A stretch of DNA of 33,479 nucleotides from the IMG/VR virus record IMGVR_UViG_2778261246_000010. One strand, given 5' to 3'. The notes under the pieces were generated by a model. It saw only the letters and a program-made list of their open reading frames with translations, had not been told where the DNA came from and searched no databases. Positions 6,437 through 16,737 of this stretch are shown piece by piece. The DNA comes from a virus. Taxonomy: Duplodnaviria; Heunggongvirae; Uroviricota; Caudoviricetes. Position 1 is the first letter of the stretch; every line of letters begins with the position of its first letter. The position numbers and the translations under genes were made by a program.

Positions 6437-6805
6437 TCAGGCGGCTTTGATAGTCATATCATCTGAATCAAATATTCCTGATGTATCGATATCGGTAATT
6501 CTTATTCCTTCGCTACCATCCATTGGAGGCCATCCTTCCTGACCATTTCCATCATTCCAGTCGAACTCACACACAACACCATATGCATTTAAGTCGCTTG
6601 AAATTGCTATAAGCAGAGCATGTTGCGCCAGCATGATTAATACAGCATTTAATACAGAGCCGTGTTTATTTAGTCGGTATTCAGAGTCTGACCAGAAATT
6701 ATTAATCTGGTGAAGTTTTTCCTCTGTCATTACGTCATGGTCGATTTCAATTTCTATTGATGCTTTCCAGTCGTAATCAATGATGTATTTTTTGATGATT
6801 GACAT
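6437..6805 (-). CDS. ea10: Ea10-like early protein (122 aa)
   Basis: Size and position between cIII and ral match lambda ea10. Confidence 0.7.
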   Translation of the reverse strand: MSIIKKYIIDYDWKASIEIEIDHDVMTEEKLHQINNFWSDSEYRLNKHGSVLNAVLIMLAQHALLIAISSDLNAYGVVCEFDWNDGNGQEGWPPMDGSEGIRITDIDTSGIFDSDDMTIKAA

Positions 6806-6987: not shown

Positions 6988-7188
6988 TCAGGCAGCTTTG
7001 TTGTTCTGTTTACCAAGTTCTCTGGCAATCATTGCCGTCGTTCGTATTGCCCATTTATCGACATATTTCCCATCTTCCATTACAGGAAACATTTCTTCAG
7101 GCTTAACCATGCATTCCGATTGCAGCTTGCATCCATTGCATCGCTTGAATTGTCCACACTATTGATTTTTATCAATAGTCGTAGTCAT
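6988..7188 (-). pseudogene. ral: ral (restriction alleviation) interrupted by an in-frame TAG at codon 10
   Basis: Minus strand reads ATG ACT ACG ACT ATT GAT AAA AAT CAA TAG TGT GGA ..., i.e. MTTTIDKNQ*CGQFKRCNGCKLQSECMVKPEEMFPVMEDGKYVDKWAIRTTAMIARELGKQNNKAA; the rest is colinear with Ral. Confidence 0.7.
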
Positions 7189-7316: not shown

Positions 7317-7589
7317 TCACCTTGCTGTCAGTTGTTTTGATTTCCTGTAGCCTGCCGCGTAAAGAGCTACATTTGGAAGACAAGTTGAGCCTTCATATTT
7401 TCTGGTCAACGTTGTCAGTGTTATTACTTCTGCTCTCATTGCTGGTTTGCGCTTGCATTGCAAGACCACTCGTGAGGGGGTTGGCCTGTGTAGCTTGTCG
7501 GAGCTAATCGACTCCTGACTTTGCAGATTTGCGCGACGAGCTCTACGGCGAGAAGCTGCGGTGCCTTTAAATTCTGTTTTTCTGGACAT
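7317..7589 (-). CDS. N: N-type transcription antiterminator (90 aa, non-lambda specificity)
   Basis: Begins MSRKTEFKGTAASRRRARRA with an arginine-rich motif; GGGAGGAA Shine-Dalgarno 4 nt upstream of the ATG; first gene of the leftward operon. Confidence 0.75.
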   Translation of the reverse strand: MSRKTEFKGTAASRRRARRANLQSQESISSDKLHRPTPSRVVLQCKRKPAMRAEVITLTTLTRKYEGSTCLPNVALYAAGYRKSKQLTAR

Positions 7590-7613
7590 AGATTCCTCCC
7601 GAATAAACTCTGG

Positions 7614-7665
7614 CGATGCAATCCCGAAGCTACTCCTGAGAGGGGTGCTTCGGCATTGCATCCCA
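7614..7665 (-). promoter_or_regulatory. Long hairpin in the N leader (candidate RNase III processing site)
   Basis: 16-bp near-perfect inverted repeat (gatgcaatcccgaagc / gcttcggcattgcatc) with a 16-nt spacer, between nutL and the N ribosome-binding site. Confidence 0.4.
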
Positions 7666-7733: not shown

Positions 7734-7779
7734 CTGCCAGTCTGTTCCGTTTGGCTTACAGCGTCCTGCTGATGAGTTA

Positions 7780-7835
7780 ACTTTATCGAAATGATAAATT
7801 AATGGCAATAGCAAAATGATAAATTGTTTTAGTTT
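7780..7835 (-). promoter_or_regulatory. Putative OL operators / pL
   Basis: Two copies of ATGATAAAT(T) matching the operator-like motif repeated in the cI-cro intergenic region; correct position upstream of nutL and N. Confidence 0.4.
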
Positions 7836-8000
7836 TCAAATATCCTGTTGATTATTATGGTTTTTTTATTTGATTGCAGGAATTTATCAGAAGGAATAAA
7901 GAGACTTGAGGGGGATCAGAATTGCGCGTTTTAGTGAGTTGTATCTGTTTATTTTTCAACAAATACAATTGGTTATGGTGTTTTTAGGTGGGGGATCGAG

Positions 8001-8030
8001 AGGCAAAGAAAACCCGGCTCGGTGGCCGGG
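8001..8030 (-). terminator. Intrinsic terminator ending the leftward immunity transcript
   Basis: Minus-strand hairpin CCCGGC-cacc ga-GCCGGG followed by TTTTCTTTG, 14 nt after the stop of the 341-aa gene. Confidence 0.55.
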
Positions 8031-8043
8031 GTTAGATTTTCTG

Positions 8044-9069
8044 TTATGGGCGAGTGATGGTTGATGCGTTTCCGTTTTCTATTACACCTGCTCGTATCGT
8101 GTAGCTTCCCAAGATTTTTACTGTCCTGTTTTCTTTCATTGCATCAAACAGTATGGCGATCTCGTCTTTATCATCTATGAACGACGTGTCCACCGAAACA
8201 GGGAAACTGTCTTCACTAGATGGTTCGCGGCAGCTTAGGGTTATCTTTTCCGCAGTACGCTTGATTCCATCAATGACTAATTCAAGGTTTCTTTCTTCTT
8301 TTTTTGCTTTTTCGATAGGGTTCTTGATTAGTTCGTGGATTTCTTTGTTAGACAGTTCAACTGTGCTTGCGCCTGATATGACAATTTTGTCAGCATCAGA
8401 CGCGCCTTTTAATACCCCTGTATACGCTTTTGCAGTATGCTCTTGAATCCCTTCGGCGCGCTCTACTGCATCTATGCCCGCTTTAGCTCTAATCGCCTCA
8501 AGCATTCCGTCCCTTAATATCGTCATGCGCTCGTTTTCTGATTTAATCTTGGCTTCTTCGAGCTTTGTTTCTTCTTGCTTGACTTCTACTTCGGCTTTTT
8601 TCTCTAAGTATGATGTACCAACCCATGCACCGCCTATAACGGTGACAGCAAACAAGAAGCATAATGTTTTTTGGCTAGGACTCATACCGTGTGTTACCTT
8701 CTCAAAGGCTTTACCGAATGCTTCAAAAAGCTCTGTTAATGCAGCAAGTATATCAGTACAACCTTCATTAATGGTAAAGATGATCTCTGCTTCCTCTTTA
8801 TCTTTACCAGTTAACCTTTGAAGGTTGTCAGTTTTATATTTTATTAGTGTGAAAACTTTATAAATTTCAGTCTGAAATTCGCATAAACCCTGAGCTAGAG
8901 GAGATGGAAGCGTTCCGTTGTAGCGAGAAGGATCACCATAAATCTTAAAATTCACATTATTGAAGAGGTCTAACTTGATCCTGTCGATAGTGATCTCTTC
9001 GCCACCATCTAACCTTGCAAACAAAGATTCAATGTCGTCCAGACTTGAAACATTAATAATATCTTTCAT
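8044..9069 (-). CDS. 341-aa protein in the Rex position (one predicted TM helix, coiled-coil C-terminal half); candidate exclusion/abortive-infection protein
   Basis: Long ORF directly downstream of cI on the same strand; about 33-38% GC by eye on sampled lines; hydrophobic segment TLCFLFAVTVIGGAWVGTSYL; charged helical region; TATAAT-like -10 and AAGGTG Shine-Dalgarno upstream. Confidence 0.8.
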   Translation of the reverse strand: MKDIINVSSLDDIESLFARLDGGEEITIDRIKLDLFNNVNFKIYGDPSRYNGTLPSPLAQGLCEFQTEIYKVFTLIKYKTDNLQRLTGKDKEEAEIIFTINEGCTDILAALTELFEAFGKAFEKVTHGMSPSQKTLCFLFAVTVIGGAWVGTSYLEKKAEVEVKQEETKLEEAKIKSENERMTILRDGMLEAIRAKAGIDAVERAEGIQEHTAKAYTGVLKGASDADKIVISGASTVELSNKEIHELIKNPIEKAKKEERNLELVIDGIKRTAEKITLSCREPSSEDSFPVSVDTSFIDDKDEIAILFDAMKENRTVKILGSYTIRAGVIENGNASTITRP

Positions 9070-9149
9070 TACAACACCTTCGGCACAACCTTGCTAGTTA
9101 AATTAGTGATTATAAAAATTGGATACTTACCAGCTATGTGACGATGAAG

Positions 9150-9854
9150 TCACGAACTTTTCAGCCACTCCCTTGCCTCGATGTCATCCAGATGGCGAGA
9201 TTGCTTCAGAATACCAGCCACATACTCCACCTTTGCTACTTGATGATAAGGCAACGTTATTGGCCTGTGGTCTTGGTTGATGCTTGTAAATTGGTATTCT
9301 CCATCTCTGTCATAGCCAAGAACCTTAATCATGTTGTGTCCTTCAACGGTTCTGACAAACACCTCATCACCCGGGAATACTTTGGTGTTAGGCTCAATGA
9401 GTACATATTCTCCTGATTTTATTCTAGGCCACATGCTGTCTCCTTTCACACGAAGACCAAAGGCATCTGGATCATCGCTATAAATCTTGAGCCACCCATC
9501 GCGCTCTTCGGTCATCTCGATGGCACCATCAACACCAAGAATTGCCTCACCAACCACGCGCACTAACCCTTTTCTTACCTGACCGACAAAAGTTAAAGAA
9601 TCTGAGCATGATGCAATTGGTGTTACATCATGTACCAAATCAAGCCACCCATTAGGTAACCCAAGTGCGGCTTCGAATTTTCTTGCTAGTTTATCCCCTA
9701 TGTTTCGAGTGCTTTTTTCACCGGAGACTTGCGTGAGTTGAGAAGGGCTAACTCCAAGCTTATCGGCAAAGCTTGCATTAGTGTTACCCGCGATTTTTTT
9801 ATGCTCATCTAGCAAAAACGCCAGATTCGATTTGCGAATATCTTTGTTTTCCAT
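9150..9854 (-). CDS. cI: CI-type prophage repressor (HTH plus S24 LexA-like autopeptidase domain)
   Basis: N-terminal HTH, C-terminal GDSMWPRI motif typical of S24 self-cleaving repressors; GAGGGAG Shine-Dalgarno; divergent from the cro-like gene. Confidence 0.9.
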   Translation of the reverse strand: MENKDIRKSNLAFLLDEHKKIAGNTNASFADKLGVSPSQLTQVSGEKSTRNIGDKLARKFEAALGLPNGWLDLVHDVTPIASCSDSLTFVGQVRKGLVRVVGEAILGVDGAIEMTEERDGWLKIYSDDPDAFGLRVKGDSMWPRIKSGEYVLIEPNTKVFPGDEVFVRTVEGHNMIKVLGYDRDGEYQFTSINQDHRPITLPYHQVAKVEYVAGILKQSRHLDDIEAREWLKSS

Positions 9855-9877
9855 CCCACGATTCTCCCTCTATTTAG

Positions 9878-9953
9878 CAAATGGATAAATACGCATTTTG
9901 ATAAATCTCCATTGCAGTTTATTTATCAAAATGGTAAAGTTGCTCTGTATGAT
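9878..9953. promoter_or_regulatory. OR operators with divergent pRM/pR
   Basis: Three copies of TGGATAAAT / TTGATAAAT / ATTTATCAA (two as a 13-bp inverted pair) and a TATGAT -10 candidate, between divergent cI and cro. Confidence 0.5.
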
Positions 9954-9967
9954 AAACGGAGGCACTA

Positions 9968-16581: not shown

Positions 16582-16656
16582 GGGTCAGTCGTATAAAGGT
16601 CATTACGGAAGGCTGTTAACCTTCTTATCGTGGTTCGAGTCCACGCTGTCCCGCCA
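16582..16656 (+). tRNA. tRNA-like gene, anticodon GTT (Asn); acceptor and D stems imperfect
   Basis: Hand-folded cloverleaf: anticodon stem GAAGG/CCTTC with loop CTGTTAA, T-arm CGTGG-TTCGAGT-CCACG, 3-prime CCA; one acceptor-stem mismatch. Confidence 0.5.
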
Positions 16657-16661
16657 AATAT

Positions 16662-16737
16662 GCTGGTTTAGCTCCAATGGTAGAGCAGTCGCCTTGTAAG
16701 CGAATGGGTAGCGGTTCAAGTCCGTTAACCAGCACCA
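16662..16737 (+). tRNA. tRNA, anticodon TGT (Thr)
   Basis: Perfect 7-bp acceptor stem GCTGGTT/AACCAGC, D-arm GCTC-CAATGGTA-GAGC, anticodon loop CTTGTAA, T-loop TTCAAGT, 3-prime ACCA. Confidence 0.7.

Follow-up and report, generated by a model that had tools for sequence, protein, structure and literature searches.

We report that a 33,479-nucleotide stretch of viral DNA (Caudoviricetes; IMG/VR record IMGVR_UViG_2778261246_000010), hereafter the window, carries a gene for a 341-amino-acid (aa) protein at 8044..9069 on the minus strand, directly downstream of its cI repressor gene and in the position that rexA and rexB occupy in phage lambda. The gene is real, conserved and prophage-borne. Its product, most likely a single-pass inner-membrane protein, belongs to a large gammaproteobacterial family whose members recur behind diverse repressors and whose predicted architecture has no counterpart among solved structures. 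On balance, we lean towards some anti-phage defence or exclusion function for this protein; a block to phage entry at the cell envelope is the specific form that we favour, more tentatively.

The open reading frame (ORF), which begins with ATG, has exactly the extent, strand and length given by an initial annotation of this DNA that was made from the letters alone. Its product is identical to WP_042199492.1, labelled 'hypothetical protein', and a prophage of Escherichia coli RM10740 shows 100% DNA identity over the gene. Upstream, on the same strand and beyond an 80-bp spacer, lies the cI repressor (9150..9854, minus strand; 234 aa), with a helix-turn-helix (HTH) and a Peptidase_S24 domain (Pfam, 3.8e-16). 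Operators were mapped from the annotation of phage ST2-8624: OL1-OL3 fall at 7782..7855 with 1, 0 and 3 mismatches, and OR3-OR0, in the pRM/pR region, at 9873..9956 with 0-3 mismatches. A promoter-like site found in a scan at 7808..7780 (minus strand) represents a pL-like promoter at OL, and the N antiterminator ORF follows at 7317..7661 (minus strand; Pfam N_peptide, 5e-32). The order is thus cI, the 341-aa ORF, a terminator, OL/pL and N. Because it matches the lambda order of cI, rexA, rexB, OL and N, with the ORF on the cI strand and between cI and the mapped OL, the gene fills the rexAB slot, as the initial annotation had held.

Signals in and around the spacer bear on how the gene is expressed. 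A Shine-Dalgarno sequence, AAGGTG, is present as previously read from the sequence, at 9075..9080 (minus strand), 5 nt before the ATG. A -10 element had also been proposed, and the TATAAT hexamer indeed lies in the spacer (9109..9114, minus strand), but it is doubtful as a promoter: the best -35 hexamer scores 2/6, a consensus promoter scan did not flag the site, and homology with the copy of the cassette in another locus (L018) stops at 9110, within the hexamer itself. A private sigma-70 promoter is therefore unsupported, and transcription from the cI promoters becomes the simplest reading. A terminator scan of the cI-ORF spacer predicted none. Co-transcription of the 341-aa gene with cI, the latter being the promoter-proximal gene, is thus probable.

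The putative operon ends at an intrinsic terminator detected by the terminator scan at 8005..8030 (minus strand), consisting of the hairpin CCCGGCCACCGAGCCGGG followed by TTTTCTTT. The GC-rich hairpin (8030..8013) starts 13 nt past the stop codon and has a fold energy of -13.7 kcal/mol. The structure agrees with what had been described, but not its attribution to the 341-aa gene: it falls in a block (7761..8030) common to phage BP-4795 at 87% identity and, since BP-4795 carries another cassette, it belongs to the backbone of the immunity operon. A similar correction applies to base composition. The ORF has a GC content of 40.4% (37.4% at third codon positions) against a mean of 49.6% for the window, placing it in the lowest 1% of equal-length intervals; the 33-38% previously quoted is too low and the contrast with the flanking genes was overstated. 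Neighbouring genes are AT-rich too, including cI (44.7% GC), cro (44.4%) and a DUF2528 gene (38.2%), and because the last of these is as AT-rich as the ORF, low GC is a trait of the whole early-left and immunity region. The DUF2528 gene (6437-6805, minus strand) matches PHROG 646, and its homologue in BP-4795 bears the gene name 'ssb'.

The slot behaves as a cargo hotspot. Comparison with BP-4795 by blastn delimits a cargo cassette at 8031..9126, with break points at 8030 and 9127. The BP-4795 cI is 96% identical to that of the window, yet between the same flanks this phage holds different cargo, namely a HigB-family toxin, an HTH regulator and a hypothetical gene. Across other E. coli prophages (loci L002 and H37-H47) these cI/OL flanks enclose at least four other cassettes, which comprise the HigB-family toxin set, an SDH-family Clp-fold serine proteinase, sets of two or three hypothetical genes, and hypothetical genes accompanied by a DUF3024 gene. 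The 341-aa gene itself is rare: just 5 of the 5426 complete E. coli genomes have it, as do 36 IMG/VR viral contigs and 2 of approximately 100,000 species-representative genomes.

Mosaicism is also visible within cI. The PhiR12 phages match window positions 7956-9603 at 98.9% identity and diverge in 9604-9854, the HTH-coding 5' part of cI (L001), while hundreds of E. coli genomes match just 9127-9577, the part of cI that encodes the S24 C-terminal domain. These matches point to a mosaic joint inside cI, one that ties the cargo to the C-terminal domain of the repressor while immunity specificity changes.

The protein gives a full-length match to PHROG 6191, which carries no assigned function; the alignment pairs residues 5-340 with positions 8-333 of a 338-position profile (E 1.3e-98). 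A word-indexed search returned 59 homologous clusters, all of about 340 aa and all 'hypothetical'. Full-length homologues with 44-100% identity occur in at least nine enterobacterial genera (Escherichia, Citrobacter, Cronobacter, Dickeya, Pantoea, Yersinia, Klebsiella, Serratia and Salmonella); for the Citrobacter copy, protein identity is 86% against a DNA identity of 75%. An exhaustive profile search extended the family to 711 representatives, clustered at 50% identity, at E <= 1e-3 (269 at E <= 1e-10), from Gammaproteobacteria. Its named members come from Xenorhabdus, Aeromonas, Oceanimonas, Vibrio, Photobacterium and Pseudoalteromonas. Nearly all of the matches are 310-380 aa long and align end to end, and the family has a common architecture: an N-terminal alpha/beta domain, a hydrophobic helix conserved in position and a charged helical hairpin.

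The initial annotation recognised no family for this protein, and the curated collections bear this out. A Pfam scan gave no match at E <= 1, an NCBIfam scan gave none, and the 5027 defence protein models of PADLOC-DB v2.0.0 returned 0 families. Scans of 68 distant relatives against Pfam, NCBIfam and PADLOC produced nothing consistent; PADLOC gave 3 scattered weak hits, each in one member, and weak hits confined to single relatives (DUF7947, DegS, PDC-M32A and others) were taken as chance. Relatives that match only in part showed no alternative domain at the C-terminus in Pfam. The gene is nevertheless not wholly undescribed: in addition to PHROG 6191, it appears in a published table of predicted defence genes (discussed below), and five PhiR12 phage genomes (hosts K-12 MG1655 and E. 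coli C) annotate it as 'T2SS GspM containing protein'. A literature search of main texts for PhiR12, PHROG 6191 and the accession numbers found no mention.

Placement behind a repressor proved to be a recurrent property of the family. Upstream sequence was long enough in 45 related loci, and in 30 of these an HTH and S24 repressor gene precedes the family gene on the same strand, mostly at a distance of 26-231 bp. All 21 of the repressors scanned match Peptidase_S24, and these are diverse, with 14-70% identity to the window cI and 11 lineages falling below 50% identity. The coupling is kept in a relative from Oceanimonas that is 35% identical and lies 33 bp from its repressor, and even in a relative at approximately 20% identity. 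The lysogen-expressed context that had been claimed for the gene is reinforced by these counts, and we regard the gene as a mobile single-gene cargo (a 'moron') that a lambdoid prophage carries in its repressor operon.

Other members occupy different positions. The family gene lies at the end of a myovirus-like prophage (recognised by its baseplate genes) in Yersinia ruckeri, where it adjoins a Gin-type invertase and tail-fibre genes, and again at a prophage end in Salmonella, where it adjoins a giant polyvalent protein. A podovirus carries it between virion genes and an Arc/KilA-N module, the position that sieA occupies in P22. An E. coli locus places it between SopA-like and NleG effector genes, and a Pseudoalteromonas island combines it with AbiEi/AbiEii. 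The Aeromonas copy is a solitary chromosomal insertion between an RDD-family gene and degQ/degS, with lptFG nearby (L055).

Several of these loci merit further description. In several Aeromonas veronii strains only fragments of 114-167 aa are present (P0209, P0211, P0212 and P0217-P0219; Aeromonas cluster of P0061), which suggests gene decay. A prophage of Oceanimonas smirnovii (L061, 8001-10283) encodes on one strand an S24 repressor, the family gene, a 77-aa ORF, DUF3037 and DUF4325; a recent study newly validated DUF3037 as part of a defence unit, DS-6 (PMC13092281), and this repressor operon may carry several defence cargos. Directly upstream of the family gene, prophages of the Y. aldovae type (L014, 5469-5867; L051) have a gene for a 132-aa protein that has no Pfam match, and Y. 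ruckeri (L004, 4596-4937) has a DUF3024 gene, a domain that is also cargo in the E. coli slot.

A full-length AlphaFold2 (AF2) model, built on 41 homologues, reached a predicted local distance difference test (pLDDT) score of 80.5 and a predicted template modelling (pTM) score of 0.68. It comprises an alpha/beta N-domain (residues 1-125), a helix running through the hydrophobic segment (131-146), a low-confidence stretch (152-168, pLDDT <50) and a helical hairpin (169-222, with helices at 169-196 and 199-222), followed by a small beta hairpin with a helix and, finally, a five-stranded barrel (256-339) whose strands 3 and 4 are separated by a helix. Projected onto the gene, the predicted cytoplasmic N-terminal domain corresponds to codons 1-130 (8680..9069, minus strand; AF2 pLDDT 78-94). 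It holds the conserved motifs KIYGDxxRYNGTLP and YKTDNLQ, and only G45, L86, G103 and M129 are nearly invariant there in distant relatives. No recognisable fold relative of this domain was found, no fold search having been run on a model of the domain alone.

The C-terminal half had been characterised as charged and coiled-coil-like. This description suits the helical hairpin at 169-222, which together with the preceding linker of mixed acidic and basic, low-confidence sequence (156-168) occupies codons 156-222 (8404..8604, minus strand), but the remainder is beta-rich. The barrel, encoded by codons 256-341 (8047..8304, minus strand), is modelled as an oligonucleotide/oligosaccharide-binding (OB) fold of three strands, a helix and two strands, an assignment resting on the number of strands, the placement of the helix after the third of them and structural resemblance to known OB domains. 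Of the 68 distant relatives, 58 have an acidic OB domain and 10 a positive one, and the family mean net charge is -3.4. No conserved catalytic-type residues were found among the relatives; conservation is widespread only at glycines, at aromatic and aliphatic residues and at a few charged ones. With an acidic OB domain and no catalytic-type residues, the protein resembles neither an enzyme nor the usual kind of nucleic-acid binder. A fold search with the whole protein found no solved structure that resembles it, and in BFVD two uncharacterised viral proteins align over its full length. The sequence-profile matches in the PDB, none of them significant, cover the span and juxtamembrane helix of bitopic proteins such as MotB, PBP5 and ATP synthase b, in keeping with a membrane span.

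The central hydrophobic helix noted from the sequence is real. The segment TLCFLFAVTVIGGAWVGTSYL (codons 135-155; 8605..8667, minus strand) contains the Kyte-Doolittle maximum of the protein (19-mer mean 1.65), and 66 of the 68 distant relatives (18-47% identity) have their most hydrophobic 19-mer at this place in the alignment, while its sequence varies. A hydrophobic peak that is fixed in position and free in sequence is the usual signature of a membrane span, and a single span is what we predict. The flank on the N-terminal side is more positive than that on the C-terminal side in 41 of 41 close relatives and, among the distant relatives, in 43 against 15. The 134-residue N-domain has no signal peptide, and longer relatives insert low-complexity linkers rich in E, K, Q, N and P past the span, thereby resembling the periplasmic stalks of bitopic proteins. 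For these three reasons we favour an N-in/C-out arrangement, in which the N-domain would be cytoplasmic and the stalk and OB barrel periplasmic.

Independent computational work had already singled out this protein. In Table S5 of DefensePredictor, published by DeWeirdt, Mahoney and Laub (Science 2026; PMC13092281), the sheet of 'uncharacterized' clusters includes WP_042199492.1 under the category 'Predicted novel defense gene', with a mean log-odds of 5.04 against a cut-off of 4 and without HHblits or Foldseek similarity to known defence proteins. One unit validated in the same study, DS-34, consists of a CI repressor and a downstream gene (PMC13092281); it illustrates that a cI-linked cargo gene can confer defence, although its cargo protein, WP_000377448.1, is not the one described here. 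The initial annotation had proposed the gene as an exclusion or abortive-infection determinant. The listing lends substance to the defence candidacy, but abortive infection is not what the anatomy favours.

Given a published prior of about one third and the very consistent cargo and repressor context, we judge a defence or exclusion function of some kind to be the better bet. As to how it might work, the charges flanking the span, the acidic OB domain and the absence of conserved catalytic residues lead us to favour an envelope protein that blocks entry, a specific proposal to which we would give somewhat less than even chances. Lying in the repressor operon, the gene would have its product made in the lysogen. 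The 134-residue N-terminal domain would face the cytoplasm, and the C-terminal 185 residues, comprising the flexible linker, hairpin stalk and acidic OB barrel, the periplasm. There the protein could bind a component of the entry machinery of the incoming phage or of the entry route supplied by the host, such that genome delivery by a superinfecting phage would be blocked at the envelope and the lysogen protected. The outcome would be superinfection exclusion as with HK97 gp15, T4 Sp or P22 SieA, and not a Rex-like cell suicide. These are bitopic or small inner-membrane exclusion proteins of Gram-negative phages, and the 341-aa protein would resemble them as the product of a single prophage-borne, lysogen-expressed gene with a predicted inner-membrane anchor and extracytoplasmic part; it is much larger, has two folded domains and is not known to be homologous to them. 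A further point of reference is SNIPE (PD-lambda-1), which also consists of one membrane-anchored protein found on a mobile element. SNIPE provides defence where the phage genome enters, as a membrane-bound nuclease that cuts phage DNA during injection (PMC13190303). Neither SNIPE domain was found here with Pfam or PADLOC, and the family has no conserved catalytic residues.

Several observations weigh against an envelope-level block or against defence altogether. The span is borderline in hydrophobicity, with a Kyte-Doolittle mean of 1.65 and a simple Hessa sum of +1.7 kcal/mol. In the AF2 model the helix breaks off at a conserved GG, covering 131-146 only, and the topology derives from simple charge counts and not from a trained predictor. 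The N-domain modelled alone has a pLDDT of only 50.7 and, taken with the pTM of 0.68, this poor model could mean that the two halves sit against each other on the same side of the membrane. The top structural matches of the OB domain are nucleic-acid-binding OB folds, and membrane-anchored OB-fold abortive proteins exist in AbiP and PdpSau (PMC10127798). Finally, WP_042199492.1 is absent from the complete Table S6 of 94 cloned units, in which only 10 of 29 tested units with log-odds of 3-7 showed defence (PMC13092281).

The lambda exclusion system provides the nearest positional parallel. RexB has several spans, compared with the single span of the 341-aa protein. The exclusion genes rexA and rexB, which are co-transcribed with cI, and the 341-aa gene share an identical slot (cI, cargo, terminator, OL/pL, N), the cI strand and a membrane component, predicted in the present case, but here there is one gene in place of two, and that one has an OB-fold domain. 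Where RexAB pairs a sensor, RexA, with a polytopic channel, RexB, the 1096-bp cassette holds a single ORF with one hydrophobic segment. A 68-sequence family profile compared by hhalign gave probabilities of 0.6% for RexA and 0.1% for RexB, and on this basis we reject homology to either. Abortive infection by a single protein, like RexAB or like AbiP and PdpSau, is the main alternative, though one that we consider unlikely. It supposes that a cytoplasmic part, either the N-domain or, if the C-terminus is inside, the OB domain, senses a phage product or nucleic acid, whereupon the hydrophobic helices oligomerise, depolarise the membrane and kill the cell before phage release. The shared rexAB slot speaks for it, as do the nucleic-acid-binding character of the top structural matches, a pTM of 0.68 that permits both halves on one side of the membrane and the AbiEi/AbiEii genes adjoining one relative. 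AbiP from Lactococcus and PdpSau, encoded in the lysogeny module of an S. aureus prophage, likewise unite a membrane anchor and an OB fold in one protein, and PdpSau depolarises the membrane on infection (PMC10127798). In these proteins, however, the anchor is N-terminal and the OB domain cytoplasmic, basic and nucleic-acid-binding, whereas here the anchor is central (135-155 of 341), flank charges favour a C-terminus outside and 58 of 68 members have an acidic OB domain, against a PdpSau domain described as positively charged (PMC10127798). A lone, moderately hydrophobic helix would also be a weak pore former, and the lack of RexA/RexB similarity argues in the same direction.

An alternative outside defence, which we also hold to be improbable, is a lysogenic-conversion or phage-serving envelope protein that alters the envelope or host fitness, or that acts in prophage induction, lysis timing or DNA entry. 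Cargo slots carry non-defence genes too, as in the E. coli locus where genes for the type-III effectors NleG and SopA-like flank the family gene; the Aeromonas copy stands alone among the core envelope genes lptFG and degQ/degS; the family lacks conserved catalytic residues and a partner gene; and approximately two thirds of similarly scored predictions gave no defence (PMC13092281). Against this, the family is found in marine and environmental as well as enteric Gammaproteobacteria, which makes a host-virulence role unlikely to be general. Its tight, repeated coupling to many repressors and its presence in exclusion- or defence-type slots are better explained by phage competition, and its rare and patchy occurrence, with decay in Aeromonas veronii, is often seen with defence genes.

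The PhiR12 records imply a type II secretion GspM-like component, a reading to which we attach next to no credence. The N-terminal tail of GspM is short and its periplasmic domain ferredoxin-like, in contrast to the 134-residue N-domain and OB fold here. The depositor's annotation fits loosely with the general layout, in which one span precedes a helix and a small domain, but the protein has no Pfam match at E <= 1, T2SSM is absent among the 68 relatives at E <= 0.01 and no GspM appears among the listed top fold matches; the identity is effectively refuted by these results. A more adventurous idea, and in our estimation a long shot, is that the family forms a widespread and hitherto unrecognised class of single-protein transmembrane phage sensors, bringing outside-in immune signalling to repressor operons. 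The periplasmic OB domain on its stalk would detect phage tail-tip or ejection proteins, or envelope damage, and the signal would cross the membrane to the conserved N-domain in the cytoplasm, which in turn would target the cell or the entry route.

Genes co-transcribed with the repressor are those that a lysogen surely expresses, and RexAB (known for approximately 70 years), BstA and DS-34 illustrate that defence functions occur in this slot. For one of its occupants an anatomy can now be proposed, namely a cytoplasmic domain, a span, a stalk and an OB barrel, and the family concerned is large, has been recruited behind at least 11 repressor types and is tied to a published prediction. The protein architecture is new; repressor-linked prophage defence cargo is a known kind of system, and the gene had already been flagged computationally. 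Should the product be a defence protein, it would represent a new, non-enzymatic mechanism at the level of the envelope, and the cI-proximal slot of lambdoid prophages would be a place for systematic mining. PhiR12 phages carry the gene and plate on K-12, making it directly testable.

Three minor observations concern other parts of the window. In RefSeq, N is represented just by a 273-nt 'hypothetical protein', and translation probably begins at a Met codon inside the 114-codon ORF. The antirestriction gene ral (approximately 6988-7188, minus strand) is a pseudogene with an internal stop in the annotation of the identical RM10740 prophage, and in this region only a 40-aa ORF (6988..7110) stays open. 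Lastly, two phage-borne tRNA genes, tRNA-Asn(GTT) and tRNA-Thr(TGT), lie 6 bp apart on the plus strand at 16582-16737.

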